In this document: positions 12,606 through 53,285 of the stretch, piece after piece
Layout: the number at the start of each line of letters is the position of its first letter
Numbering within the stretch: the stretch's first letter is position 1
NCBI GenBank assembly: GCA_963719495.1
Contig: CAVRCI010000001.1
Location: 192,001-256,000, forward strand
Source: an uncultured Verrucomicrobiae bacterium
Lineage (GTDB): Bacteria > Verrucomicrobiota > Verrucomicrobiia > Chthoniobacterales > JAATET01
Length of the DNA: 64,000 nucleotides
Direction of reading: 5' to 3'
Notes under the pieces: model-generated
Seen by the model: the letters and a program-made list of their open reading frames with translations, nothing else
Told to the model about the DNA's origin: nothing
The model's database searches: none
Position numbers and translations under genes: made by a program

Positions 12606-12685
12606 GGGGAACGCACGCGTCCCGCGTGCGAGATGCGGCGTCCCGCCGCATCACCCGGCAATTTCGAGCAAAGCGAGAGAGCCGA
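12606..12685 (+). repeat. REP-like double-hairpin element, family A (intergenic copy)
   Basis: ggggaacgcacgcgtcccgcgtgcgagatgcggcgtcccgccgcatc...gcaaagcgagagagccg; five copies in the window. Confidence 0.9.
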
Positions 12686-38540: not shown

Positions 38541-40991
38541 ATGCAAACGCATCATCTCCTGCCAAAACTCCTCGCCGTGCGCATCCCGCCCCCCCTCCGG
38601 CTTCCGCTCGTCCTGGCCGTTACGGCAGTCGCGTTGTCGGATTTCGCTCGCGCCCAGGACTCGACAACCTTCCCGGCGGACGAAGCCAACGTCCGCGAAC
38701 TCCTCCGCACCGGATCCTACCCGGAAGCCCTCGCCGCCGCCGAACGCTCCGCCCGCTTCCCCGATCATCCGATCCAGCGGGCGCTGTTGCTCCACCACGC
38801 GATGACTCCCCTCCGTCCGCGCGACCGAGCCCTCGGCCAACTCTACGCCGCCGTCCGCAACCCGACCGACCTCGCCAACGCGACGCCCGACTCCCTCATC
38901 GCGCTCGGCCGAGCCCGCCTCCTCCTCGGCGACGACCCGCGCGAGATCATCCGCCAATGCTACGATCCCGCCAAAGCCGCGGCCCCGAAAGATCCCGCCC
39001 CGCTGATCGCCATCGGCGACCTCGCTCTCGCCAAGCGGGACGACCACCTCGCCGCGACCCACTACCGCGCGGCCCTCGCCCTGCTTCCCGCCAACGCACC
39101 CGACCCCGACGTCCTCGCCCGCCTCGCCCGCGCCCTCTCGCCGACCAACCCCCGCGCCACCGACGACACCCTCGCCGCCGCGCTCACCGCCGATCCGACC
39201 AACCTCCCCGCCCTTCAGCTCCAGGCCGAAACTCTCATCGCCCGCGACCAATTCGACGAAGCCCGCGCGGCCATCGCCAGAATCCTCGCCGTCAATCCCC
39301 ACCACGTCGCCGCCCACGCCCTCACCGCCGCCATCGCCCAACTCACCGGCGACTCCGCCGCCATGGCCGCCGCCCGCGCCCGCGCCCTCGCGCCCTGGCC
39401 GGGCAGCCCCGAACCCGACCTCCTCATCGGCCGCACCCTCGCCGCCCAGATCCGCCCCGCCGAAGCCATCGAATTCCTCCGCCTCGCCCTCCGCGCCGAC
39501 CCCAACAATCTCGAAACCAACTTCCTCCTCGGCTCCACCCTCCTCCGCTTCGGTCGCGAGCCGGAAGGCTGGCCCTTCATCGAAGCCACCTTCGACGCCG
39601 ACCCCTACCACGTCGCCGCCTTCAACCTGCTCGAACTCCGCGACCGCACCGACCGCCACACCACCCTCGAACGCGACGGCATCCGCCTCCGCATGGACCC
39701 GACCCAGGCCACCGTCTACGGCCAACGCGCCCTCGACCTCCTCGCCCGCGCCCGCGACACGCTCACGGCAAAATACCGCACCGCCGTCCCGAATCCCGTC
39801 ACCGTCGAGATCTACGCCGACCAGCGTGACTTCGCCATCCGCACCTTCGGCGTCCCCGGGGGCGAGGGCTTCCTCGGCGTCTGCTTCGGCCCCCTGATCA
39901 CCGCCAGCGGCCCCGGCACCAACCTCGGCCGCGCGAACTGGGAAGCCGTCCTCTGGCACGAATTCGCCCACACCGTCACGCTCACCCACACCCACCACCG
40001 CATCCCCCGTTGGCTGTCCGAAGGCATCTCCGTCCACGAGGAACGCCGGGCCGACCCCCGCTGGGGCTTCGCCCTCACGCCCCGCCTTCGCCAGGCCATC
40101 GTCGAGGATAAAATCCCGCCCATCGACAAGCTCGACGCCGCCTTCCGCACCGGCGACTTCCCGCTCGCCTACTACGTCTCCTCACTCGCCGTCGACTACA
40201 TCGTCGCCACCCACGGTTTCGATTCCCTCCGCGCCGTCCTCGACGACCTCCGCGCCCGCCGCCCGCTCGCCGAGTCCCTCGCCGCCCGCCTCGCCCCGCT
40301 CCCCGACCTCCGCGCCGGCTTCACCGCCTACGCCAAAGAAATCACCACCGCCGCCGGCCCCAACCTCGATTGGACGCCCCTCACCGAATCCGACCAGGAC
40401 GCCATCGTCAACAACCCGGACGCCTGGCTCCAATCCCATCCCACCAACTACTGGGGCCTCACCGCCCACGCCCGCCACCTCGTCGAAAACGCCGACCACA
40501 CCACCGCCCGCCCCCTCCTCGAGCGCCTCGTCGACCTCTACCCCGGCAACCACGACGACCCCAATCCCCGCGCCCTCCTGGCCACCGTCTACAAACACCT
40601 CGACCAACCCGACCGCGAGCGCCGGACGCTCGCCGACCTCAACGCCCTCGACGCCGGCAACCTCCCCGCCCTCCACCGCCAACTCGAACTCACCACCGAT
40701 CCCGTCGAAACCGCCAAAATCACCGAAGCCCTCCTCGCCATCGACCCGCTCAACCCATTGACCCACGCCTCCCGTGCCGCCAACGCAACCCTCACCCCGA
40801 CCCAGCGGGATTCCGCCTTCACCGCCCTCCTCGCCCTCGGCCCACCCGACGAAGCCCGCACCCGCTACGACTACGCGCAATTCCTCCGCCCCACCGACCC
40901 GGAGCGATCCCGCCGCCAAGTCCTGAAGGCCCTCGAACAAACCCCCAGATACCGAGCCGCCCAAACCCTTCTCTTAGATCTCCAAAAATGA
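38541..40991 (+). CDS. Secreted TPR protein with peptidase MA-like zincin domain
   Basis: Signal peptide, TPR repeats, LWHEFAH (HExxH), PRWLSEG. Confidence 0.82.
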   Translation: MQTHHLLPKLLAVRIPPPLRLPLVLAVTAVALSDFARAQDSTTFPADEANVRELLRTGSYPEALAAAERSARFPDHPIQRALLLHHAMTPLRPRDRALGQLYAAVRNPTDLANATPDSLIALGRARLLLGDDPREIIRQCYDPAKAAAPKDPAPLIAIGDLALAKRDDHLAATHYRAALALLPANAPDPDVLARLARALSPTNPRATDDTLAAALTADPTNLPALQLQAETLIARDQFDEARAAIARILAVNPHHVAAHALTAAIAQLTGDSAAMAAARARALAPWPGSPEPDLLIGRTLAAQIRPAEAIEFLRLALRADPNNLETNFLLGSTLLRFGREPEGWPFIEATFDADPYHVAAFNLLELRDRTDRHTTLERDGIRLRMDPTQATVYGQRALDLLARARDTLTAKYRTAVPNPVTVEIYADQRDFAIRTFGVPGGEGFLGVCFGPLITASGPGTNLGRANWEAVLWHEFAHTVTLTHTHHRIPRWLSEGISVHEERRADPRWGFALTPRLRQAIVEDKIPPIDKLDAAFRTGDFPLAYYVSSLAVDYIVATHGFDSLRAVLDDLRARRPLAESLAARLAPLPDLRAGFTAYAKEITTAAGPNLDWTPLTESDQDAIVNNPDAWLQSHPTNYWGLTAHARHLVENADHTTARPLLERLVDLYPGNHDDPNPRALLATVYKHLDQPDRERRTLADLNALDAGNLPALHRQLELTTDPVETAKITEALLAIDPLNPLTHASRAANATLTPTQRDSAFTALLALGPPDEARTRYDYAQFLRPTDPERSRRQVLKALEQTPRYRAAQTLLLDLQK

Positions 40992-41872
40992 ACGCCAAGC
41001 GTGAACCGGGGGAAAACAGGCATCCTGCCTGTCGCGTCGGGGTTGCCTTCGGCGGTCTCCGCTCCGCTACGGCTCCAGCCCGACGCCTCGCCCAAACCGG
41101 CGCAGCCGCACTCCTCCTTCTCACGACCCTCCCCCCAAAAACCACCCAAGCCACCCCGGAAATCACCACCGACCGAGGCGGCACCCCCACTTGGAAGATC
41201 GACCCCCAATTCCTCGGCGAAGCCTTCACCTTCGTCCGCCTCCGCCCCCGCAACCACTCCGCGTGGCGCACCGACTTCCCCGACGCCGACATCAACTTTC
41301 CCTACCGCCTCCATCAACTCACCACCATCCTCGTCAACCCCGACCCCGTCGTCATCGAGGTCACCGACCCCGCCCTCCGCGACTACCCCTTCGTCTACAC
41401 CGCCGAACCAAGGACCCTCGACCTCCAACCCGACGAAGTCGAAATCCTCCGCGACTATCTTCTCAACGGCGGATTCCTCCTCGTCGACGACTTCTGGGGC
41501 GAATCCGAATGGGCCAACGCCTACCGCAACCTCGAGCTCATTTTCCCCAACCGCGAGCCCGTCGATCTCCCCCTCGACCACCCGATCTTTCACTCCGTCT
41601 TCGACCTCGAACGCAAACCCCAGATCCCGGACATCGAGACCGCCATCCAGGGCCGCTCGCAAGGCATCACCTGGGAAAAAGACGGACGCGATCCGCATTA
41701 CCAAGCCTGGTTCGACGACGAAGGCCGCATGATGGCCCTCCTCTGCCACAACACCGACCTCGGCGACGGCTGGGAACGCGAGGGCGAGAACGAATGGTTC
41801 TTCCACGAATTCTCCGAGAAGCAAGCCTACCCCATGGGCATCAACATCGTCTTCTACGTCCTAACCCATTAG
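40988..41872 (+). CDS. DUF4159 domain protein
   Basis: WRTDFPDAD, YLLNGGFLLVDDFWG, HPIFH, NTDLGDGWE; ATG overlaps the upstream stop. Confidence 0.85.
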   Translation: MNAKREPGENRHPACRVGVAFGGLRSATAPARRLAQTGAAALLLLTTLPPKTTQATPEITTDRGGTPTWKIDPQFLGEAFTFVRLRPRNHSAWRTDFPDADINFPYRLHQLTTILVNPDPVVIEVTDPALRDYPFVYTAEPRTLDLQPDEVEILRDYLLNGGFLLVDDFWGESEWANAYRNLELIFPNREPVDLPLDHPIFHSVFDLERKPQIPDIETAIQGRSQGITWEKDGRDPHYQAWFDDEGRMMALLCHNTDLGDGWEREGENEWFFHEFSEKQAYPMGINIVFYVLTH

Positions 41873-41875
41873 CCG

Positions 41876-41975
41876 CTCTTTCTCTTAATCCTAATCTTTA
41901 TCGCTCTCCCAAACGCACCGCCGCCGGACATTCAATAACGAGACGAAGACAAAAAATAAGATTATGGGAAAGAGG
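41876..41975. repeat. Inverted pair of degenerate 6-mer arrays (CTCTTA/TAAGAG type)
   Basis: ctctttctcttaatcctaatctttatcgctctc ... gagacgaagacaaaaaataagattatgggaaagag. Confidence 0.55.
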
Positions 41976-41979
41976 GTGA

Positions 41980-42032
41980 AAATCCGAATTCCCGCATCCC
42001 AATTTCGAATTCCTCATTTCAAATTTCCCATT
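41980..42032. repeat. Degenerate 7-mer array (ATTTCAA/ATTCCCC type)
   Basis: aatccgaattcccgcatcccaatttcgaattcctcatttcaaatttcccatt. Confidence 0.7.
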
Positions 42033-42040
42033 CATCCAAA

Positions 42041-43027
42041 ATGACCACCGACCAACAAACCCTCGAACGCCTCCTCCACGGCCGCACCCAGATCCGCGCC
42101 GAACTCGCCAAGGTCATCGTCGGCCAGCACGACGTCATCCATCAGCTCCTCATCGCGCTCCTCTCCGGCGGCAACTGCCTCATCACCGGAGCCCCCGGCC
42201 TCGCCAAGACCCTCGTCATCCGCACCCTCGCCCGGGTTTTTCACCTGAAGTTCCAGCGCATCCAATTCACCCCCGACCTCATGCCCGCCGACATCACCGG
42301 CACCGAGATCCTCCGCGAGACCCCCGACGGCCAGCGCGAACTCACCTTCGTCCCCGGCCCCATCTTCGCGAACATCATTCTCGCCGACGAAATCAACCGC
42401 ACCCCGCCAAAAACCCAGTCCGCCCTCCTCGAAGCCATGCAGGAACGCCAGGTCACCGTCGGCGGACGCACCCACCCCCTCGACCCACCCTTCTTCGTCC
42501 TTGCGACCAAGAACCCCATCGAGATGGAAGGCACCTACCCCCTCCCCGAAGCCCAGCTCGACCGCTTCATGTTCGACGTCCTCATCGACTACCTCCCCGA
42601 AGACGACGAAGTCACCGTCGTCGCCCAGACCACCTCCACCCGCCCGGAACCCGTCCAGGCCCTCTTCACCGGCGAGGACCTCCTCGCCTTCCAGAATCTC
42701 GTCCGCCGCGTCCCCATCGCCTCCGACGTCATCCGCTATGCCGTCCGCCTCGCCGCCGCCAGCCGCCCCCACCAACCCGGCACCCCCGCCTTCATCAACG
42801 ACTGGGTCAGCTGGGGAGCCGGCCTCCGCGCTGCCCAATTCCTCGTCCTCGGAGCCAAAGCCCACGTCCTCCTCGAAGACCGCACCCACGTCACCCCCGC
42901 CGACATCCGCCACTTAGCGCTCCCCACCCTCCGCCACCGCATCCTCCCCAACTACCGAGCCGAAGCCGAAGGCATCACCCCCGAAAACATCATCACCCGC
43001 CTAACCGCCGAAATCAAACCAACCTAA
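42041..43027 (+). CDS. moxR: MoxR family AAA+ ATPase (second paralogue)
   Basis: GAPGLAKT, QFTPDLMPAD, LADEINR, NPIEMEGTYPLPEAQLDRF. Confidence 0.95.
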   Translation: MTTDQQTLERLLHGRTQIRAELAKVIVGQHDVIHQLLIALLSGGNCLITGAPGLAKTLVIRTLARVFHLKFQRIQFTPDLMPADITGTEILRETPDGQRELTFVPGPIFANIILADEINRTPPKTQSALLEAMQERQVTVGGRTHPLDPPFFVLATKNPIEMEGTYPLPEAQLDRFMFDVLIDYLPEDDEVTVVAQTTSTRPEPVQALFTGEDLLAFQNLVRRVPIASDVIRYAVRLAAASRPHQPGTPAFINDWVSWGAGLRAAQFLVLGAKAHVLLEDRTHVTPADIRHLALPTLRHRILPNYRAEAEGITPENIITRLTAEIKPT

Positions 43028-43081
43028 CTCCACCCTAAATCCACAGCCACCACCCAACGGCCGCGCCCCACGAAACCCCCC

Positions 43082-43122
43082 ATCCAAAACCCTGTCATGT
43101 TGAGCGAAGCGAAACATCTCTG
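43082..43122 (+). repeat. Short dispersed repeat TGTCATGYTGAGCGAAGCGAARCATCT, copy 2
   Basis: Matches 33532-33571. Confidence 0.85.
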
Positions 43123-43183
43123 ACTTACACTCCTCACCTCACCTTCACGTAACGAACCCACCAACCCACCCAAACCCAATCAA

Positions 43184-44095
43184 GTGCCCGCCGCCCACGA
43201 CCCCGCCACCCTGATGCGCATCCGCAATCTGGAACTCCGCGCGCGCACCGTCATCGACGGCCTCTGGACCGGCATCCACCGCAGCGACACGCACGGCTTC
43301 TCCGCCGAATTCGCCGAATACCGCCACTACCAACCCGGCGACGACATCCGCACCCTCGACTGGAAACTCTACGCCCGCTCCGACCGCACCTACGTCCGCC
43401 GCTACGAAGAAGACACCTCCCTCAGCTGCACCCTCCTCGTCGACCGCAGCCGCTCGATGAACTTCACGTCTCTCACCTACACCAAAGCCGACCTCGCCCG
43501 CACTCTCGCCGCCACCTTCGCCCTCTACCTCCGCGGCCAGGGCGACGCCACCGGCCTCCTCACCTTCTCCGACCAGGTCCACGATTACCTCCCCCCCTCC
43601 ACCCGCCCCGCCCAGATCCACGCCCTCATCCTCGCGTTGGAAAGCGCCAACTCCGGCACCTCCACCGACCTCACCCAACCCCTCGAGCGCATCGCCGCCC
43701 TCATCCGCCGCCGCAGCCTCGTCATCATCCTCTCCGACCTCCTCGTCCCCACCGAAGCGCTCGAACACCGCCTCTCCCTCCTCGCGGCCCGGGGCCACGA
43801 AGTCGTCCTCTTTCAAATCCTCGACCCCGCCGAAATCAACTTCACCTTCGCCGACGCCACCATCTTCGAAGACCTCGAGACCGGCACCCACCACCCCACC
43901 GACCCCACCACCGTCCGCGACGCCTACCTAAAAAACTTCAACACCCACCAAACCACCCTAAGCCAACTCTGCCAACGCATCGGCATCACCCACCACCTCT
44001 TCCCCACCGACCAACCCTTGGCGACCGCCCTCTACCAATACCTAAAAACCCGCCAAACCCACCGAAGGATCCGCCGAACGTCCAACAAAGCCTAG
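43184..44095 (+). CDS. DUF58 family protein
   Basis: EFAEYRHYQPGDDIRTLDWK, DRSRSM, ILSD. Confidence 0.92.
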   Translation: MPAAHDPATLMRIRNLELRARTVIDGLWTGIHRSDTHGFSAEFAEYRHYQPGDDIRTLDWKLYARSDRTYVRRYEEDTSLSCTLLVDRSRSMNFTSLTYTKADLARTLAATFALYLRGQGDATGLLTFSDQVHDYLPPSTRPAQIHALILALESANSGTSTDLTQPLERIAALIRRRSLVIILSDLLVPTEALEHRLSLLAARGHEVVLFQILDPAEINFTFADATIFEDLETGTHHPTDPTTVRDAYLKNFNTHQTTLSQLCQRIGITHHLFPTDQPLATALYQYLKTRQTHRRIRRTSNKA

Positions 44096-44109
44096 CCAGC
44101 CGCCCTCGA

Positions 44110-44144
44110 GGAGCGGCGATTTGCAATCGCCGAACCAACCCAAC
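44110..44144 (+). repeat. REP-like palindrome family B (GAGCGGCGATTTGCAATCGCCGA)
   Basis: Also at about 49626-49655 and 52183-52216. Confidence 0.88.
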
Positions 44145-44179
44145 GGCGAAGCCGCAAACCAAAAGCCTAAACACCCCCC

Positions 44180-46207
44180 GTGTCCTTCCTAACCCCATTC
44201 TTCCTCCTGGCAGGGATCGCAATAGCGATCCCCCTCATCCTCCATTTCACCCGTCACCGCCCAAAAAACGTCACCCCCTTCTCCGCGTCGATCTTCCTCC
44301 CCCCCGACCGCCCCACCCTCCGCAAGCGGCGTCACCTCGAGAATTGGCCCCTCCTCCTGCTCCGCTGCCTCATCCTCCTCCTGCTAGCCGCGGCCTTCGC
44401 CCGCCCCTTCTTCAACGACCCCATCACCACCCTCGACCCAAGAGCCAACCAGCGAGTCATCATCCTCCTCGACACCTCCGCCAGCATGACCGCCGGGGAA
44501 CGCACGCGTCCCCGCGTTCGGGATGCGACGTCCCGCCGCATCACTCGGCAAAGCGCCAGCGAGCCGTCCCTCGAAGCCGTCCGCCAAATCACAACCAACC
44601 TCCCGCCAACCACCGACCTAGCCCTCATCACCTTCGCCCGCCGCCCCACCACCCACCTCGACTTCGAGCAATGGCGCGCCATCCCGCCCCCCGACCGCGC
44701 CGCCCATCTCGAATCCCTCCTCGCCAACCTCGAAGCCACCGACGCCGCCACCAACCCCGGCGAAGCCCTCGTCGCCGCCAACGACCTCCTCGCCGCCTCC
44801 GCCAGCCCCGACCCCGCGACGATCCACCTGATCAGCGATTTCCAACAAACCGCCGACTTCGAAGCCGTCACGACCATCGACTGGCCCGAAAACGTCACCG
44901 TCCACCCCATCCGCGTCCCCCACGACACCGACGCCATCCCAACCCTCACCCTGGCCAGCGCCACCGAAACCGAGATCACCCTCATCGCCACCAACCCCGG
45001 CCCCGCAAACACCGCGACCCTCACCCCCACCAATCACCAGTCACCAATCACCTCTCACCAGCTCCCCATCCCCCCCGGAACCACCCCCATCACCTTCCCG
45101 GCGGACCTCACCACCGCCTCCTACACCGCCACCCTCACCGGCACCGACTCCCCCTTCGCCACCGTCTACGTCGCCCAGTCTCGCCCACCGACAATCGCCG
45201 TCGACTACCTCGGCACCGACGACCCCACGGACACCACCGCCCTCCTCTTCTTCCTCACCCGCGCCCTCGCCAATCCCACCCGCTTCACCACCAACCTCGC
45301 AATCAATCAACCCCGCGACGACGCCTTCACCATCATCGCCACCGACTTCACCGAACCCACCGCCGCCCCCCTGCGCACCCAGCTCCTCGCCGGTTCCCAC
45401 GCTCTCCTGCTCCTCCGCAATCGCGCCGACGCCCGTTGGATCGAGGCCCTCACCGGCGACTCCGCCACCGCCCGCGAAGCCGCCACACCCCAGTTCGCCC
45501 TCCTCACCGCCCTCGACTATACCGACCCCATCATCGCCCCCTTCGCCGACCCGAGATTCAGCGACTTCTCGAAAATCCACGTCTGGAAACACCGCGCCCT
45601 CACCGGCCCCGCCCTCATCGAAGCCACCACCCTCGCCAGCTTCGACGACGGCACCCCCGCCCTCCTCCGCATCCCGGTCGGAGAAGGCAGCCTCCTCGTC
45701 CTCACCACCACCTGGACCCCCGCCGACAGCCAGCTAGCCGTCTCCTCCAAATTCGTTCCCCTCCTCCTCTCCATCCTGGAAACCACCGCCACCCTCCCCC
45801 CCACCCAGCGCCAGTATCTCGTCGGGGAACGCACGCCTCCCGGCGTGCGAGATGCGGCGTCCCGCCGCATCACCCGGCAAAGCGCCGCCGAGCCGAACAC
45901 CGACACCCCCGGCCTCCACGAAACCCCCTCCTTCACCTACGCCGTCAACGTCGATCCCCGCGAATCCGACCTCACCCCCCTCCCCGAAGCCGCCCTCCTC
46001 GCCCTCGACCTCCCCACCGCCGAAAAGCAACCCGCCGCCACCAAATCCACCCCCGACCGCACCCGCCAACTCGCCCTTCAGGAGCTCGAAGCCCGCCACC
46101 CCCTTTGGCCCACTCTCCTCATCGCCACCCTCGCCGTCATCTTCGCCGAAACCACCCTCGCCACCCGCATTCAATCCGCAATCCGCAATCCGCAATCCGC
46201 AATCTAA
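44180..46207 (+). CDS. BatA-N-terminal/VWA membrane protein carrying in-frame repeat insertions
   Basis: MSFLTP..IPLILH..LLLLRCL..AFARP; MIDAS DTSAS; LISDFQ; AVNVDPRESDL; C-terminal TM. Confidence 0.85.
   Translation: MSFLTPFFLLAGIAIAIPLILHFTRHRPKNVTPFSASIFLPPDRPTLRKRRHLENWPLLLLRCLILLLLAAAFARPFFNDPITTLDPRANQRVIILLDTSASMTAGERTRPRVRDATSRRITRQSASEPSLEAVRQITTNLPPTTDLALITFARRPTTHLDFEQWRAIPPPDRAAHLESLLANLEATDAATNPGEALVAANDLLAASASPDPATIHLISDFQQTADFEAVTTIDWPENVTVHPIRVPHDTDAIPTLTLASATETEITLIATNPGPANTATLTPTNHQSPITSHQLPIPPGTTPITFPADLTTASYTATLTGTDSPFATVYVAQSRPPTIAVDYLGTDDPTDTTALLFFLTRALANPTRFTTNLAINQPRDDAFTIIATDFTEPTAAPLRTQLLAGSHALLLLRNRADARWIEALTGDSATAREAATPQFALLTALDYTDPIIAPFADPRFSDFSKIHVWKHRALTGPALIEATTLASFDDGTPALLRIPVGEGSLLVLTTTWTPADSQLAVSSKFVPLLLSILETTATLPPTQRQYLVGERTPPGVRDAASRRITRQSAAEPNTDTPGLHETPSFTYAVNVDPRESDLTPLPEAALLALDLPTAEKQPAATKSTPDRTRQLALQELEARHPLWPTLLIATLAVIFAETTLATRIQSAIRNPQSAI
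44495..44566 (+). repeat. REP-like family A copy, in frame inside a CDS
   Basis: Encodes GERTRPRVRDATSRRITRQSASEP. Confidence 0.9.
45824..45896 (+). repeat. REP-like family A copy, in frame inside a CDS
   Basis: Encodes GERTPPGVRDAASRRITRQSAAEP. Confidence 0.9.
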
Positions 46208-46209
46208 CG

Positions 46210-49200
46210 ATGCTCCCCGCCCTCCAAGCCCAACTTGCCGCCATCACCGCCCGCGCCCGCCTGCGCGCCCGCCGCACCACCGCCGCCCTCTGCGGCCTCG
46301 TCCTCGTCGCCATCGGCGTCGGCGGCCTTGCCCTCACCCTCACCACCGGCCTTCACCCCGGCTGGCTCCTCCTCACCCTCCTCGTTCTCGCCGCCGCCAG
46401 TTTCCTCGTCGTCCACCTCCACTCGAAAGCCCCCCCCACCGCCCGCGTCGTCCGCGAGATCGAGCGCAACCACCCCGAACTCCAAACCGCCCTCCTCGCC
46501 GCCACCGAAAACCGTCCCCAACCCGGCCAACCCCCCGACGACGACTTCCTCCGTCACCGCCTCGAACTCGCCCTCAGCTACGAAGCCGCCCACGGCGGCT
46601 GGGACGACACCGCCTCCCCCGGCCAACTCGCCCGCCTCTCCGTCGCCCTCTGGATCACCGCCGCCATCACCGCCGCGCTTTTCCTGACCTTCCTCGCCCT
46701 CGGTCTCCGGCGCACCATCCTCCCGTCCACCACCACGACCGCCGCCGACACCGGCCTCACCGTCGAACCCGGCAGCATCGAGATCGAACGCGGCACCCCC
46801 GTCGCCGTCCTCGCCCGCTTCGCCACCACCCCACCCGACCGCGTCACCCTCGAGATCGGCCCCGACGCCGACCACCTCACCCCCACCCGCCTCGACCGCA
46901 ACCTCGACGACCCCGTCTTCGCCACCACCGTTCCCCCCGTTCAAACCGACCTCGTCTACCGCGTCACCACCGACGCCGGACTCACCAGCCAGGTCCACAC
47001 CATCAGCGTCTTCGAATTCCCAAAAATCACCCGCCTCGACGCCACCCTCCAGCCCCCCGGCAATCCCGAATCCAATCCGCCCAAAACGATCGAAAACACC
47101 CGTGCCATCACCGCGCCCGAGGGCACCCTCCTCACCCTCACCATCACCACGAACCAACCCATCGCCGCCGCCGATCTCACGCCCGAAAAAGGCACCGCCA
47201 TCCCCCTCACCGTCGACCCCACCGCCCCCACCCGCCTCACCACCACCTTCGTCCTCACCCAATCCACCCGCTACACGATCGACCTCACCGACCCCGCCGA
47301 CCGCCGCAACCAGAAGCCCGAACGCTTCGACGTCAAAGTCACCAAAGCCGTCGTCCCGAAATTTGAAATCGCCCTCCCCCAGCGAGACGCCCGCGTCACC
47401 CCCATCGAGGAAGTCGCCTTCCAGATCGACGTCAAACACCGCGCCCCCCTCGCCGACCGCGGCCTCACGATCACCGTCGCCGACTCGCCCCCCGAGACCA
47501 TCGCCCTCGGCCCCGCCCCATCCGCGAAAACCCCCACCCCCATCCGCCACCTCCTCCGGCTCGAACCCCGCCACGTCCAGCCCAACGACCTCATCACCTG
47601 GTTCGCCTGGGCCGAAGACACCGCCCCCGACGGCACCCCCCGACGCACCGAGGGCGAACTCCAATTCACATCCGTCCGCCACTTCGAGGAAACCTTCCGC
47701 CGCCTCGAAGCCAACTCCCAGCCCGGCGAAAACCTCTGCGTCAAACTCATCAAGACCCAGAAGGAAATCGTCACCTCGACCTGGAACCTCCACCGCAACC
47801 CCACCCCGCCCCGCATCGACTCCGACGCCCCCCTCATCCGCGATTCCGAGCAGATCGCCATCGACATCGTCGACGAGCTCCAAACCATCCTCACCGACCC
47901 CCACGACCTCGTCATCCTCCGCGAAGCCCGCGAGGACATGACCGCCGCCCTCGCCACCCTCGGCTCCCTCATCGAAAGAACCGACCCCGACCTCATCTCC
48001 CTCGCGCTCGAATCCGAGACCCAGGCCCTCGCCAAGCTCCTCCAACTCTCTGGCAAGGATTGGCTCATGCTCGTCTCGAAAGACTCCGCCCCCGGCGACC
48101 CTCCCGGCCCCAGCCAATTCGACATCGACGTCGCCCCCATCGACGACCGCTACGAGGCCAACCAGGCCGCCACCGCCGAAGCCGATCCCGAAGGAGCCGC
48201 CGCCCGCCAGATCCTCAGCCGCCTCCGCGACCTCGCCAACCGCCAGAAAGACCTCAACGCCGCCATCAACGAACTCCTCATCGCCCTGCAACGAGCAAAC
48301 GACGAGACCGAACGCGAAGACCTCCAACGCCAGCTCGCCAAGCTCCGCCAGGAACAACTCGAAAACCTCGCCGAACTCGACCGACTCACCCAACCCCGCC
48401 CCGAACTCCGGGAGCAACCCCCAAAAACCGCCCAGCAATCCGAAATGGAATCCGCCCGCCGCGACCTCAACGCCGCCGCCGAAGCCCTCGAAAAATCCAA
48501 CCCCGCCGAGGCCCTCGCCAACGGCCGCCGAGCCGAGGAAAAACTCGAAGACCTCCGCCGCGACCTCGAAGCCCAGGCCGCCAACGCCTTCGCCGACGAA
48601 CTCCGCAACCTCCGCACCGCCGCCCGCGACCTCGCCGAAGAACAGCGCGCCATCTCCCAAGCCCTCACCGACACCCCGCCCCAATCCAGCCCGACCGAAC
48701 GCCAGCGCCCCGACCTCACCGACACCACCCCAGCCCCCACCGACCTCCCCGGTCGCCTCACCCGCCAGCGCGAGCAGCTCGCGAAAACCACCGCCGCCCT
48801 CGAATCCTTGGCTGAAGAAACGGCCCCCACCGAACCCCTCCTCGCCGACAACCTCACCGACGCCCTCCGCGAAACCGCCCGCGCCGGCACCGAGCAAACC
48901 CTCGAGCGAGCCAGCCGATTCAGCCAAGCCGGCAGCCCCACCTTCGCGAAAACCGCCTCCGACCAAGCCGCCGAATCCCTCGACCAACTCGCCGCCGACA
49001 TCGCGACCGCCGCCGCCAGCATCCTCGGCAGCGAAGAAAAAGCCCTCCGCTTCGCCCAATCCGAACTCGACCAACTCACCCAGCAAATCACCGAAAACAA
49101 TCCCAGCCCCCCCACACCCGGAGAGTCCCCCTCCCCCGGCCAATCCCCCGGCCCACCCGCCACCGCGTCCAACCCAGGCCAAGCTCCCTCCACCTCACCC

Positions 49201-49560
49201 CCACCAATCACCAATCACCAATCACCAATCACCGGCCCCACCTCCACCCACTCCGCCTGGTCCGACCGTCTCCGCAACGTCGAGGAACTCATCGACCTCC
49301 CCGAGGTCCGCGACTCCATCGCCCAAGCCCGCGAATTCGTCCGCTCCACCCGCCGAGACGCCATCCGGGGAAGCCGCGACCCGCAATGGGACCTCGTGGC
49401 GACCGAAATCCTCGCCCCGCTGGCCGAAGCGCAAACCCGCCTCCGAGAACAACTCGCCCGCCTAACCAAAGAAGACCCCCTCGTCCCCATCGAAAGAGAC
49501 CCCGTCCCAGCTCAATACACCGAAAGCGTAAAAACCTACTACGAACAGCTAGCGCGCTAA
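46210..49560 (+). CDS. Large membrane-anchored Ig-like/coiled-coil protein (DUF4175-like)
   Basis: ATG 46210; three N-terminal TM segments, beta domains, long helical region, C-terminal DPVPAQYTESVKTYYEQL. Confidence 0.8.
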   Translation: MLPALQAQLAAITARARLRARRTTAALCGLVLVAIGVGGLALTLTTGLHPGWLLLTLLVLAAASFLVVHLHSKAPPTARVVREIERNHPELQTALLAATENRPQPGQPPDDDFLRHRLELALSYEAAHGGWDDTASPGQLARLSVALWITAAITAALFLTFLALGLRRTILPSTTTTAADTGLTVEPGSIEIERGTPVAVLARFATTPPDRVTLEIGPDADHLTPTRLDRNLDDPVFATTVPPVQTDLVYRVTTDAGLTSQVHTISVFEFPKITRLDATLQPPGNPESNPPKTIENTRAITAPEGTLLTLTITTNQPIAAADLTPEKGTAIPLTVDPTAPTRLTTTFVLTQSTRYTIDLTDPADRRNQKPERFDVKVTKAVVPKFEIALPQRDARVTPIEEVAFQIDVKHRAPLADRGLTITVADSPPETIALGPAPSAKTPTPIRHLLRLEPRHVQPNDLITWFAWAEDTAPDGTPRRTEGELQFTSVRHFEETFRRLEANSQPGENLCVKLIKTQKEIVTSTWNLHRNPTPPRIDSDAPLIRDSEQIAIDIVDELQTILTDPHDLVILREAREDMTAALATLGSLIERTDPDLISLALESETQALAKLLQLSGKDWLMLVSKDSAPGDPPGPSQFDIDVAPIDDRYEANQAATAEADPEGAAARQILSRLRDLANRQKDLNAAINELLIALQRANDETEREDLQRQLAKLRQEQLENLAELDRLTQPRPELREQPPKTAQQSEMESARRDLNAAAEALEKSNPAEALANGRRAEEKLEDLRRDLEAQAANAFADELRNLRTAARDLAEEQRAISQALTDTPPQSSPTERQRPDLTDTTPAPTDLPGRLTRQREQLAKTTAALESLAEETAPTEPLLADNLTDALRETARAGTEQTLERASRFSQAGSPTFAKTASDQAAESLDQLAADIATAAASILGSEEKALRFAQSELDQLTQQITENNPSPPTPGESPSPGQSPGPPATASNPGQAPSTSPPPITNHQSPITGPTSTHSAWSDRLRNVEELIDLPEVRDSIAQAREFVRSTRRDAIRGSRDPQWDLVATEILAPLAEAQTRLREQLARLTKEDPLVPIERDPVPAQYTESVKTYYEQLAR

Positions 49561-49571
49561 AAAAGTCTAAT

Positions 49572-49655
49572 TCAAGGAGCGGCGGCTTCCAGCCGCCGAA
49601 CCGGCCAAGCGAAGCGAGCCTCGAGGAGCGGCGATTTGCAATCGCCGACCCAACC
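49572..49655 (+). repeat. Composite REP-like cluster: family C (GGAGCGGCGGCTTCCAGCCGCC) plus family B
   Basis: The same modules recur at 52067-52216. Confidence 0.85.
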
Positions 49656-49733
49656 AAAACGGCAAAGCCGTCATTCCGCATCCCCATCCCCCACCCAGCC
49701 ACCCCAGGCACCCCGCCGAAAACCCACCCCCAC

Positions 49734-52055
49734 ATGACCCTCACCCTAGGCAACCCCACCTGGCTCCTCCCAGCCACCCTCGCGCTCCTCGCCTTCGCCC
49801 TCCTCCTCGCGTGGACCTACGCCCGCCTCCCCCACATCCCCGTCACCACCCGCCTCGCCTGCTTCATCCTCAAATTCCTCGGCACCGCCGCCCTCATTTT
49901 CTTCCTCCTCGACCCCCGTCTCGAGCGCCAGATCGCCAAGCCCGGAGCCAACCACGTCGCCATCCTCGTCGACCGCAGCGCCAGCCTCGAGATCCCCGAC
50001 CCCACCACCGGCCGACCCCGCTCCGAGGAAATCCGCGACCTCCTCGCCCCCGACGCCCCCTGGCTCACCAACCTCGCCGCCACCCACACCGTCCACCGCC
50101 ACGTCTTCGACTCCCGCGTCCGAGCCGTCCCCGACTTCACCACCCTCACCTTCGACGGCCACCTCACCTCCCTCCACCAAGCCCTCGCGGATCTCGCCGA
50201 CCGCACCACCAACCTCCCCCTCTCCGGCCTCATCCTCCTCACCGACGGCAACGCCACCGACCCCACCACCCTGGCGCAGCCGCAAACCATTTCTCATTCC
50301 CCATTTCAAATTTCAAATTCACCCCCAATCTACCCCGTCCTCCTCGGACCCGACACCGCCCCCCCCGACCTCCGAATCGTCCACACCACCGCCACCGAAT
50401 CCGCCTTCGAGGACACCCCCGTCACCATCGAAGTCGAGATCGAAGCCACCGGCTTCCAGACCCGCGACGTCAAGGTCCAGCTCCTCGACCCAGCGACCCG
50501 GCAAGTCCTCACCACCGAAAAACGCCGCATCGCCACCGACTCCGCCCGCCTCCCCATCCGCTTCGAAATCCGCCCAAAAAACCCCGGCCTCTTCACCGCC
50601 ATCGCCCGCGTCGAGTCCACCACCGGCGTCCCCGAAGCCACCCTCGCCAACAACGAACGCCTCATCGCCCTCCCCCGCCGCTCCGACCCCATCCGCGTCC
50701 TCTACGTCGGCGGACGCCCAAATTGGGAACACAAATTCCTCAAGCGTGCCCTCGACCACGACGACCTCGTCCAACTCGTCAGCCTCATCCGCATCTCCGA
50801 CCGCACCCCCCGCTTCGCCTGGCGCGACGCCACCGCCGCCACCACCAACCCGCTCTACCAAGGCTTCGAAGCCGCCGAAGACGAGGCCGAGCGCTTCGAC
50901 GAACCCGTCCTCGTCCGACTCGACACCCGCGACGCCGCCGAGCTCCGCGGCGGTTTCCCGACCGCCGCCGCCGACCTCAACGCCTACGACGCCCTCATCC
51001 TCGACGACCTGCCAGCCACCTTCTTCACCCGCGACCAGCAACGCCTCATCGAGAGTTACGTCGCCGATCGCGGCGGCAGCCTCCTCGCCCTCGGCGGCAA
51101 CGAATCCTTCCGCCGCGGCCACTTCGAACGCACTCCCCTCGCCGACCTCCTCCCCGTCTACCTCGACCGCGCCCAGCGTCCGCCCCCCCGCGGCCCCGTC
51201 CGCCTCGACCTCACTCGAGAAGGTCTCCTCGCCCCCTGGACCCGCCTCCTCCCCACCGCCGAAGCCGAAAGCGCCCGCCTTGCCGCCCTCCCCCCGCTCC
51301 GCGTTCTCAACGACACCGGCGACGCCAAACCCGGAGCCACCACCCTCGCCACCGCCACCGAAGCCGACGGCACCATCCACCCCGCCCTCATCGCCCAATC
51401 CTACGGCCAGGGCCGCGTCGCCGCCCTCACCACCGGAGACCTCTGGCGCACCGGAATGGAATCCCCCGCCGCCCGCCGCGACCTCGAACGCACCTGGCGC
51501 CAGCTGCTCCGCTGGCTCGTCACCGACGTCCCCACCCGCGCCACCCTCACCGTCCGCCCCGACCCAGCCGCCCCCGACCAATCCACCGAACTCCGCGCCA
51601 CCCTCCGCGACGAAGATTTCAATCCAAAAATCCAACCCGACGTTCCCCTCGAAATCACCAACCCAGACGGCACCACCACCCTCCGCACCGCCCAACCCGA
51701 CCCCGCCACCCCCGCCACCCCCGGCACCCACACCCTCACCACCACCGCCCCCGGCCTCCACCGCGCCAACCTCGAGGGTGCCCCCGAAATCGCCTGGACC
51801 CTCGACCCCGAAGCCAAAGAATTCGAAACCCTCGGCATCAACAGATCCCTCCTCCAAACCCTCGCCACCGCAAGCCAGGGCGAACTCCTCAACCCAGCCG
51901 ACTTGAAAACGATCTCCGAGCGCCTCACCAAAAACGCCCAGACCATCCTGGAAACCCAATCCACCCCCCTCTGGCACCAATGGCCCTTCCTCTTGGGCGC
52001 AATCGCCTGCTTCGCCGCGGAATGGACCCTCCGAAGAAAAAAGAACCTCCCATGA
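49734..52055 (+). CDS. Membrane protein with VWA-like and class I glutamine-amidotransferase-like domains
   Basis: ATG 49734; two TM segments; DRSAS..LLTDG; RVLYVGGRPNWEHKFL; GGSLLALGG; EWTLRR end. Confidence 0.8.
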   Translation: MTLTLGNPTWLLPATLALLAFALLLAWTYARLPHIPVTTRLACFILKFLGTAALIFFLLDPRLERQIAKPGANHVAILVDRSASLEIPDPTTGRPRSEEIRDLLAPDAPWLTNLAATHTVHRHVFDSRVRAVPDFTTLTFDGHLTSLHQALADLADRTTNLPLSGLILLTDGNATDPTTLAQPQTISHSPFQISNSPPIYPVLLGPDTAPPDLRIVHTTATESAFEDTPVTIEVEIEATGFQTRDVKVQLLDPATRQVLTTEKRRIATDSARLPIRFEIRPKNPGLFTAIARVESTTGVPEATLANNERLIALPRRSDPIRVLYVGGRPNWEHKFLKRALDHDDLVQLVSLIRISDRTPRFAWRDATAATTNPLYQGFEAAEDEAERFDEPVLVRLDTRDAAELRGGFPTAAADLNAYDALILDDLPATFFTRDQQRLIESYVADRGGSLLALGGNESFRRGHFERTPLADLLPVYLDRAQRPPPRGPVRLDLTREGLLAPWTRLLPTAEAESARLAALPPLRVLNDTGDAKPGATTLATATEADGTIHPALIAQSYGQGRVAALTTGDLWRTGMESPAARRDLERTWRQLLRWLVTDVPTRATLTVRPDPAAPDQSTELRATLRDEDFNPKIQPDVPLEITNPDGTTTLRTAQPDPATPATPGTHTLTTTAPGLHRANLEGAPEIAWTLDPEAKEFETLGINRSLLQTLATASQGELLNPADLKTISERLTKNAQTILETQSTPLWHQWPFLLGAIACFAAEWTLRRKKNLP

Positions 52056-53206
52056 AAAAAACTAAATCAAGGAGCGACGGCTTCCAGCCGCCGGGGAGCG
52101 CACGCGTCCCCGCGTGCGAGATGCGGCGTCCCGCCGCATCGCAAGGCAAATCGAGCAAAGCGAGAGAGCCGAAGTCCACAAAGAGCGGCGATTTGCAATC
52201 GCCGAACCAACCCAACCGCGACCGAAGGTCGCCACTCCCCCTCCGCATCCTCACCGCCGCCGCAACCCTCATCGCCGCAACCCTCGCCCCCCTCCAAGCC
52301 ACCACCCCCCGCCAAATTCTCATCCTGGTCGGCACCCCCGGCGAAGACTCCTACGCCGAGCGATTCGCCACCTGGACCGCCAACGTCACCATCACCGCAA
52401 CCCGCGCCGGAATCACCCCAACCGTCATCGACGCCGAGACGCCCGACCCCCGCGAGGCCCTCACCGAATTCCTAAAACCGCTCGCCACCCCATCCGACCC
52501 AGCCACCCCACCCCCCAGCGAACTCTGGATCATCCTCATCGGCCACGGCACCGACGACGGCAAAACCGCCAACTTCAACCTCCAAGGCGACGACATCAGC
52601 CAGCACGAATTCGCCAAGCTCCTCGCCCCCATCCAGCGCCCCATCGTTTTCGCCAACCTCACCGCATCCAGCGGCCCCTTCCTCGAAGCGCTCTCCGGCC
52701 CCGACCGCACGATCATCACCGCCACCCGCGGCGGAAAACAGCGCGACTTCGCCCACTTCGGCGAATTCTTCACCAAGTCCCTCGCCGACCCCGTCGCCGA
52801 CCTCGACAAAGACGGCCAGACCTCCCTCCTCGAAGCCTTCCTCGCCGCCTCGACCGCCACCACCGCCTCCTACGAAGCCGACCAACGCCTCCCCGCCGAA
52901 AACGCCCTCATCGACGACAACGGCGACAAAAGAGGCACCCCCGCCGAAGCCTTCCAAGGCCTCACCCCAAAAATCGCCCCAATGTCCACCGAACTCCCCG
53001 ACGGCGAAATCGCCACCCGCATCGTCCTCATCCCATCCCCCGAAGAAGCCGCCATCCCGGAAAATCTCAAAACCCAACGCACCGCCATCGAACTCCAAAT
53101 CGCCCGCCTAAAAACCCAAAAACCAACCCTGGACGAGGACACGTTCTACGCCCGCCTGGAAATTCTCCTAATCGACCTCGCCCACCTCTACCAAAAAATC
53201 GACTAG
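52052..53206 (+). CDS. Hypothetical secreted protein, possible caspase/legumain-like fold; N-terminus built from repeats
   Basis: ATG overlaps the upstream stop; h-region ILTAAATLIAATLAPLQA; LIGHG, TASSGPF, DLDKDG. Confidence 0.7.
   Translation: MKKTKSRSDGFQPPGSARVPACEMRRPAASQGKSSKAREPKSTKSGDLQSPNQPNRDRRSPLPLRILTAAATLIAATLAPLQATTPRQILILVGTPGEDSYAERFATWTANVTITATRAGITPTVIDAETPDPREALTEFLKPLATPSDPATPPPSELWIILIGHGTDDGKTANFNLQGDDISQHEFAKLLAPIQRPIVFANLTASSGPFLEALSGPDRTIITATRGGKQRDFAHFGEFFTKSLADPVADLDKDGQTSLLEAFLAASTATTASYEADQRLPAENALIDDNGDKRGTPAEAFQGLTPKIAPMSTELPDGEIATRIVLIPSPEEAAIPENLKTQRTAIELQIARLKTQKPTLDEDTFYARLEILLIDLAHLYQKID
52067..52238 (+). repeat. Composite cluster (families C, A, B and a GCGACCGAAGGTCGC hairpin) inside the 5' end of a CDS
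   Basis: Direct matches to 49572-49655, 12606-12685 and 44110-44144. Confidence 0.9.
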
Positions 53207-53285
53207 GGGAACGCACGCGTCCCCGCGTGCGAGATGCGGCGTCCCGCCGCATCACCCCGGCAAATCGAGCAAAGCGAGAGAGCCG
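53206..53285 (+). repeat. REP-like family A copy (intergenic, between convergent genes)
   Basis: Near-identical to 12606-12685; begins on the last base of a TAG stop. Confidence 0.9.

Follow-up and report, generated by a model that had tools for sequence, protein, structure and literature searches.

The closest described relatives of the repeat reported here are the REP sequences, whose spread by RAYTs is described as unresolved (PMC8266576). In Opitutus terrae, about 70 intragenic REPs are listed (GTAG-17, GTAG-18 and GTAG-19), with eight ORFs hit twice, four of them by the same family (PMC3733652). Our repeat resembles the O. terrae REPs, as that paper presents them, in being a short GC-rich hairpin sequence found in frame in unrelated proteins, where it specifies peptides of 20-30 residues in several frames. 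It is set apart from them, with the proviso that it may equal a listed family, by a GGGG tag, by a solo three-hairpin unit where the O. terrae REPs are single or dimeric, by a low share of internal copies (~4%) and by its occurrence on one strand. The words 'leading' and 'lagging' do not occur in PMC3733652, nor does 'GERT' in its supplements.

With the REPs of described REPtrons and RAYTs (PMC3116915, PMC6006769, PMC8266576) the repeat shares a tetranucleotide tag, two unpaired bases and a perfect 8-bp stem; its layout is group 3 or GTAG-1-like, a RAYT is flanked by the repeat and an inverted copy, and no target duplication is seen. Unlike REPtrons and REPINs as these papers describe them, the RAYT is an in-frame domain of RecG, the dispersed copies are not inverted doublets, the tag is not GT[AG]G and no conserved cleavage dinucleotide lies 5' of it. 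The palindromic elements of Rickettsia are likewise palindromic repeats fused in frame to unrelated genes, but they measure ~150 bp, encode a conserved peptide and lie in ORFs in nearly half of the cases (PMC10969869), whereas the copies described here measure 72-80 nt, use three frames and are internal in 5 of 118 cases. A replication-linked orientation bias like the one found here is known from the HUH elements IS200/IS605, which orient with the fork, and IS91, which orients against it; the tag strand of our repeat appears to run against the fork. That study, as far as its available text goes, examined no REP family (PMC3971601), and our literature search found no paper on strand-polar REP families.

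A double in-frame insertion is ordinary for such repeats, two per gene having already been published for O. terrae (PMC3733652). The two insertions described below add one case to this habit, and their value lies in the population behind them. What is unusual and new is that the copies of this GGGG-tagged population are solo and all on one strand, and that its RAYT is embedded in another protein.

Two in-frame copies in a BatA-type VWA gene

The whole stretch of DNA analysed (hereafter the window, 64,000 nucleotides) contains five copies of the repeat, at 12606, 44495, 45824, 52093 and 53206, all on the + strand and all beginning with GGGGA, in agreement with the original prediction. The unit had been taken for a double hairpin, but folding gives three hairpins. 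The GGGG tag is followed by 2 nt and then by an 8-bp stem with a loop of 3-4 nt. Compared with shuffled sequences, four of the window copies reach z values of -3.4 to -5.1, versus -0.66 for the copy at 44495, whose stems are damaged. A profile search (E<=0.001) detected 126 copies at 124 separate loci in G000, the genome holding the window, so the window copies are not due to chance. Rfam gave 0 matches at E<=1 over 44300-46100, hence no known structured RNA there, and an exact 48-letter pattern had 0 matches in a contig collection that may leave out the own and near genomes.

Two of these copies lie in the gene at 44180..46207 (+), which starts with GTG, has an intact reading frame and encodes a BatA-VWA protein of 675 residues. 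This protein comprises a BatA double-transmembrane N-terminus (1-76), a VWA domain (93-222), a beta-rich and GATase-like middle part and C-terminal helices. Genes for a MoxR-type AAA ATPase (42041..43027, +) and a DUF58 protein (43184..44095, +) adjoin it and, with the BatA N-terminus and the MIDAS-bearing VWA domain, mark it as a BatA-VWA protein of the MoxR-partner type. The MIDAS motif DTSASM (44471..44488, +; D98, S100 and S102) is invariant in 15/15 aligned sequences, and T191 and D220 of the VWA domain are likewise retained. Named homologues (31-34% identity) come from Verrucomicrobiota and Planctomycetes; among solved structures, the VWA and GATase-like matches are weak. The surrounding cluster (38541-53206) contains TPR/peptidase, DUF4159, MoxR, DUF58 and BatA-VWA genes and those for a 1116-aa protein without Pfam match, a GATase-like protein and a 384-aa protein without family match.

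Both copies are read in frame 0 and leave the ORF open, as predicted. Copy 1 (44495..44566, +; 72 nt, GGGG-tagged; residues 106-129) translates to GERTRPRVRDATSRRITRQSASEP and copy 2 (45824..45895, +; 72 nt; residues 549-572) to GERTPPGVRDAASRRITRQSAAEP. Copy 1 was said to stand directly after DTSAS; it is indeed adjacent, but three codons (M-T-A) intervene. The 10 nt behind it (44567..44576, +; codons S-L-E) resemble the spacer behind 30 of 97 full-length copies (background 3.5%) and are possibly trailing foreign DNA, so the loss of host sequence may extend somewhat further here.

Full-length orthologues were found in two of the five same-genus genomes compared (G001-G005), namely G003 (68%) and G004 (66%). 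At site 1, 24 codons in our gene stand against 3 in G003 and G004, both without the peptide: native sequence was replaced, as had been suspected. The span from M103 to F152 measures 50 residues here, 29 in G003 and G004, and 32 in 116/119 homologues (36 in one), the homologue lengths being those of the best 120 of 279 matches. At site 2, the first two codons of copy 2 provide the conserved G-[DE] of the protein family (G in 115 and D/E/Q in 111 of the 120 listed homologues). G003 carries a decayed counterpart of copy 2 at the same nucleotide, and G004 has a short native-looking segment without a copy. Hence the expectation that orthologues lack the peptides holds for copy 1 and fails for copy 2; the G003 peptide is the same element, so that insertion still stands. 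Among the homologues listed, repeat-like peptides occur only in the query and the G003 protein. Over the 19 codons of copy 2 compared between G000 and G003, a small sample, pN is 0.10 and pS 0.12, and no constraint at the protein level is visible in these sequences. Host codons were lost at both coding sites; unlike a MITE, the repeat has two different ends and neither coding site shows a target-site duplication. Together, the orthologue alignments bear out a non-autonomous palindromic element inserted in frame.

The VWA core is modelled confidently by AlphaFold, and pLDDT falls below 50 at 108-123 and 546-573, which may merely reflect absent alignment coverage at the two peptides. Both are predicted, at low confidence, to be loops, in line with the surface position proposed for them, and the MIDAS residues are retained. 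As to relationships, 76 of 103 genes put G003 with G004, a result that bears on a possible transfer of the operon between G000 and G003; protein distances of the VWA gene are nearly star-like (0.309/0.325/0.307) and its synonymous sites are closer to G003. An assembly artefact had also been considered. Two findings indicate that the copies are not evidently artefactual: G003 has copy 2 at exactly the same nucleotide position, and run X1 yielded a 156-nt contig identical to 44430-44585. X1 may be the source sample of this DNA, and its contig bridges copy 1 by 65 nt at the left junction and only 19 nt at the right.

Among the remaining window copies, one is intergenic (12606..12684, +), 4 nt past a stop codon between convergent genes. 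Another (52093..52171, +) is flanked by two other hairpin repeats and is probably translated in frame +1 (GSARVPAC...), as an N-terminal extension of the ORF 52052-53206; the ATG at 52052 overlaps the upstream stop, and an overlapping start is also present in G003 (ATG) and G004 (GTG). The first G of the last copy (53206..53285, +) completes an upstream TAG stop. At this site G003 has no stop, and a decayed copy lengthens the protein by 20 residues. For annotation, these repeats are a warning, since they give proteins of the genus loops, extended N-termini and C-terminal tails that are lineage-specific.

A repeat population on one strand

On the gene calls made in this analysis (3549 genes, 80% coding), 5 of 118 well-scoring copies are gene-internal, two in the VWA gene, two in recG and one on C15; this was the census of in-frame against intergenic copies that had been proposed. 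A further copy lies 18 codons into treZ and three more lie behind coupled start codons. With 126 copies, 113/118 of them not internal, the family is abundant, mostly extragenic and often placed just 3' of genes, as are GTAG-type REPs, and a GC-rich stem-loop shortly follows the tag. The tag itself is not GT[AG]G: 116 of the 126 copies begin with GGGGA, and GGGG is found in 116/116 copies aligned from profile position 1. Translated copies span three frames (GERT, GSARVP/MGNAPV and WGARAS), and the sense strand is almost free of stops (97, 95 and 94 of 97 full-length copies are open per frame), which helped in-frame survival. The one-frame conserved peptide and large ORF share of the Rickettsia elements are not found. 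The low internal share and the three frames, together with the similar pN and pS of the shared copy, argue against the earlier proposal that the element adds peptide modules in the Rickettsia manner; the two in-frame copies are likely tolerated passengers.

The two ends of the repeat behave differently. The 5' end is fixed (GGGGA) and lies <=7 nt from a stop codon in 52/89 cases, versus 4/62 for the 3' end (Fisher P 1e-11), which is variable and carries trailing DNA. Among the sites listed, the unoccupied ones of relatives often measure no more than 20-30 nt, indicating that the extra DNA entered on the 3' side. No clear target motif was seen 5' of the tag (G at -3 in 55/116 copies vs ~50% background). 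An inverted partner, the hallmark of REPINs, occurs in 1/126 copies (recG right end, 98 nt); six other matches to an inverted-pair pattern proved to be unrelated sequence on inspection.

The repeat occurs in the genus; it was found in 0/11 other genomes of the family, and 24 more distant genomes gave weak partial matches in two. By a rough positional test, both stems are perfect in 79/117 copies of G000 versus 6/49 in relatives, which points to a recent burst in G000. An orthologous flank was identified for 45 of 47 relative copies tested. In 18 cases G000 has a copy at the corresponding place or close to it, and by hand sum the stem mismatches at these 18 sites amount to 9 in the G000 copies versus 31 in those of the relatives. 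At several other sites the same junction is taken, in other species, by another GGGGA-tagged family. This is also true in frame in treZ, where each of three species has a different repeat family at a single junction. In treZ (G000:C2:338963-340765, -) the repeat lies near the start, and the two other families are those of G003 and G004. The internal copy on C15 is in frame (WGARAS) in a membrane protein gene (G000:C15:31188-32831, -); G001 has a decayed copy there, G002, G003 and G005 have none, and in G004 the gene is split in two frames. The idea that old copies persist preferentially in coding DNA was not supported, with 0/19 such copies in G001, 0/10 in G004 and 4/20 in G003 (2 in recG).

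When skew is computed in windows of 3 kb or 10 kb, every one of the 126 copies falls on the C-rich strand; windows of 30 kb give 125/126. The same holds for 49/49 copies fetched from G001, G003 and G004, which are the top-scoring matches and not a full census. Twenty-one copies sit between two genes that are both on the strand opposite to the copy, so that orientation does not follow transcription. The rRNA operon and 15/16 marker genes are on the G-rich strand, and genes overall show no strand bias (1770/3546). Judged by skew and gene orientation in this 16-contig assembly, the G-rich strand can be taken as leading, and the copies would thus be lagging-sense. Tags with a perfect hairpin number 2 on the G-rich versus 163 on the C-rich strand. 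A canonical GTAG family of G000 used as control (GTAGCGGCGGTC) is unbiased (20 vs 23), and other GGAG and GGGG families are as polar as this repeat. Composition was rejected as the cause of the polarity: bare GGGGA-N-C tags are biased the opposite way, towards the G-rich strand (2660 vs 683), and CC is merely 2.3 times commoner on the C-rich strand.

This polarity gives a hint of the likely mode of spread of such repeats. Strand information is masked in inverted doublets and visible in a solo polar family. With dated copies, empty sites and an identifiable RAYT, it offers a strand-resolved read-out of which fork strand serves, and predicts a junction structure for in vitro work.

Several side observations concern the same strands. 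GGAG-tagged hairpin families with CGGCGATT and CGGCGGCT stems occur in the window at 44104-44149, 49570-49664, 52064-52092 and 52176-52221; genome-wide they are polar (80 vs 1 and 27 vs 0), and the sole exception adjoins a stand-alone RAYT at C4:156233. GC skew in G000 is very strong, mostly 0.1-0.3 per 20 kb and 0.4 around the VWA gene, and copies occupy the more skewed regions (median 0.27 vs 0.19). Six long Y1 transposases (315-356 aa) with GGGGTCAG/GGGGTCGG motifs upstream are all on the G-rich strand, opposite to the repeat.

RAYT domains inside recG and other genes

The original prediction held that any mobilising enzyme, for instance a RAYT, would be encoded elsewhere, and proposed a search for RAYTs flanked by the repeat. 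Seven RAYT-profile and 12 Y1_Tnp matches were obtained in G000, and the repeat lies nearby for one only, a RAYT domain in frame within the RecG helicase core (G000:C14:100566-103301, -; domain at RecG residues ~390-570). The repeat stands on both sides of it, as for the cognate RAYT of a GTAG-type REP, which makes it the candidate mobiliser. This domain scores 80.2 bits against NF047646 (cut-off 80), retains HVH and the Tyr at the catalytic position and is under purifying selection (omega 0.2). The cassette is bounded by direct repeat copies and an inverted end, and the flanking copies are without the usual third hairpin.

A cassette is present at this spot of recG in 5/6 genomes of the genus, with differing hairpin ends; in G002 it is missing, as is the first hairpin of the repeat. 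Between G000 and G003 its pS is 0.115, versus 0.34 and 0.24 for the host gene, and between G001 and G004 its divergence is 0.06 versus 0.3; cassettes that diverge less than the recG around them have apparently been exchanged. G003 has a nearly identical cassette, yet ~20 copies were recovered there, mostly decayed, whereas G001 (19 copies) and G004 (10 copies) have another cassette, their recG keeping a remnant of the right end of the repeat. The presence of the cassette alone does not, therefore, predict copy abundance.

Three of the 12 Y1_Tnp matches are in-frame domains, of RecG, LeuRS and AlaRS. The latter two (G000:C10:1249-4494 and G000:C13:378005-381487), named from sequence motifs, are flanked by other hairpin repeats, and the AlaRS fusion also exists in G002. 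In G001 (C4:168000-175000) a 1252-codon frame, by its motifs like a type I restriction R subunit, contains an internal RAYT-like domain. Our literature search found no paper on RAYT domains inside RecG; a RAYT survey discarded long fusion proteins (PMC6006769).

Mode of spread and other repeats of the cluster

We consider it probable (at roughly 0.6) that the two segments are copies of a REP-type repeat that is GGGG-tagged and confined to the genus, that the recG RAYT likely spreads this repeat by fork-coupled single-strand transfer, and that both segments are likely tolerated as passengers in two loops of the VWA protein, which is membrane-anchored and evolves fast. In this model the RAYT encoded in frame inside recG would cleave the DNA at the tag's 5' foot and remain attached to the end so formed. 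This end would next be joined to a 3'-OH of the lagging-sense strand, such as that of a nascent Okazaki fragment. Resolution of the 3' side would be ragged, taking neighbours along and overwriting host bases, and old tags could be re-entered. Frame-keeping insertions in loops would survive, on the assumption that the VWA gene is expressed and that its two added peptides are neutral. HUH enzymes become linked to DNA through a 5'-phosphotyrosine, and any 3'-OH that attacks this link can resolve it (PMC8266576). Two counterpoints come from the literature: inverted doublets, not singlets, are held to be the mobile unit (PMC3116915), and in characterised RAYTs the tag selects a defined dinucleotide for cleavage (PMC8266576), whereas no conserved base precedes the tag here. 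More tentatively, and with odds well below even, solo GGGG REPs could be the replicating unit themselves, with a RAYT embedded in a housekeeping gene, overwriting, re-entry and a one-ended joining to the nascent lagging-strand 3'-OH that recalls rolling-circle elements. If true, this would account for the polarity (175/175), for a 5' end that is sharp and a 3' end that is ragged, for the replacement of VWA codons and for the exchange of families at fixed in-frame positions, and it would give REP spread a mechanism open to direct testing.

The polarity could also arise by biased loss. Copies would then arrive in both orientations, possibly paired as inverted doublets of the kind seen in the 98-nt recG unit, and tagged hairpins exposed on the single-stranded lagging template would be excised, so that solo copies are left on the other strand; the in-frame copies would still be passengers. 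IS200/IS605 elements do excise from the lagging-strand template (PMC6006769), singlets have been described as remnants of doublets (PMC3116915), and the G-rich-strand copies mainly adjoin RAYT genes (C4:156233, C13:380114 in alaS and the recG right end). However, none of the 79/117 young-looking copies with perfect stems is on the G-rich strand and an inverted partner exists for 1/126, so that loss would need to be almost immediate. We infer biased entry and regard biased loss as rather unlikely. RecG has a preference for forks, and the RecG moiety might bring the RAYT to stalled forks in which the template of the leading strand has a gap, thereby setting the polarity. The tag strand matches that template and the cassette sits in recG in 5/6 genomes of the genus, but families with a stand-alone RAYT (GGAG-CGGCGA, 80 vs 1) or the alaS RAYT (15 vs 1) are equally polar, and targeting by RecG is improbable.

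Selection of the peptides, as modules like those of Rickettsia that form a new surface or linker, with copy 2 restoring lost length in the C-terminal region, appears just as doubtful. The chance that two of the three internal copies outside recG fall in one gene is ~0.001, and both are in the same frame. The two species that keep copy 2 differ in it at 6 of 57 nt, versus ~17 expected from flanking synonymous divergence (P 0.0006), and the site-2 span is mostly 73-78 residues in homologues, 47 in G004 and 63/66 with the repeat. Against this, copies 1 and 2 have a common third-hairpin variant (4 occurrences genome-wide, for a pattern taken from both), a likeness that suggests local copying, and this would account for the otherwise unlikely double hit. 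Moreover, pN is close to pS in the shared copy, the perfect stems of the G000 copy and decayed ones of the G003 copy fit re-entry, G004 is without either copy and other translated copies use other frames. Least probable of all, the VWA gene might have become dispensable and be gathering repeats as it decays, or assembly errors might account for the copies. With a pN of 0.19 relative to G003, the gene ranks near the 90th percentile among 227 orthologue pairs, and it contains four repeat-derived segments; yet the frame is intact across 675 codons, the MIDAS and family-invariant residues are retained and the adjoining gene evolves equally fast (0.187), while the orthologous G003 copy and the exact X1 match speak against misassembly.

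The VWA gene also carries a heptamer-type repeat unrelated to the hairpin repeat (45029..45059, +), which is in frame (TNHQSPITSH) and absent from the orthologues, and a heptamer tandem repeat forms the C-terminal tail of the protein (46173..46200, +; SAIRNPQSAI). Besides these two, heptamer tandem repeats are translated within cluster genes at 49190-49232 and 50289-50340. They are mostly on the C-rich strand, and the C-terminus of the VWA protein has other heptamers in relatives.
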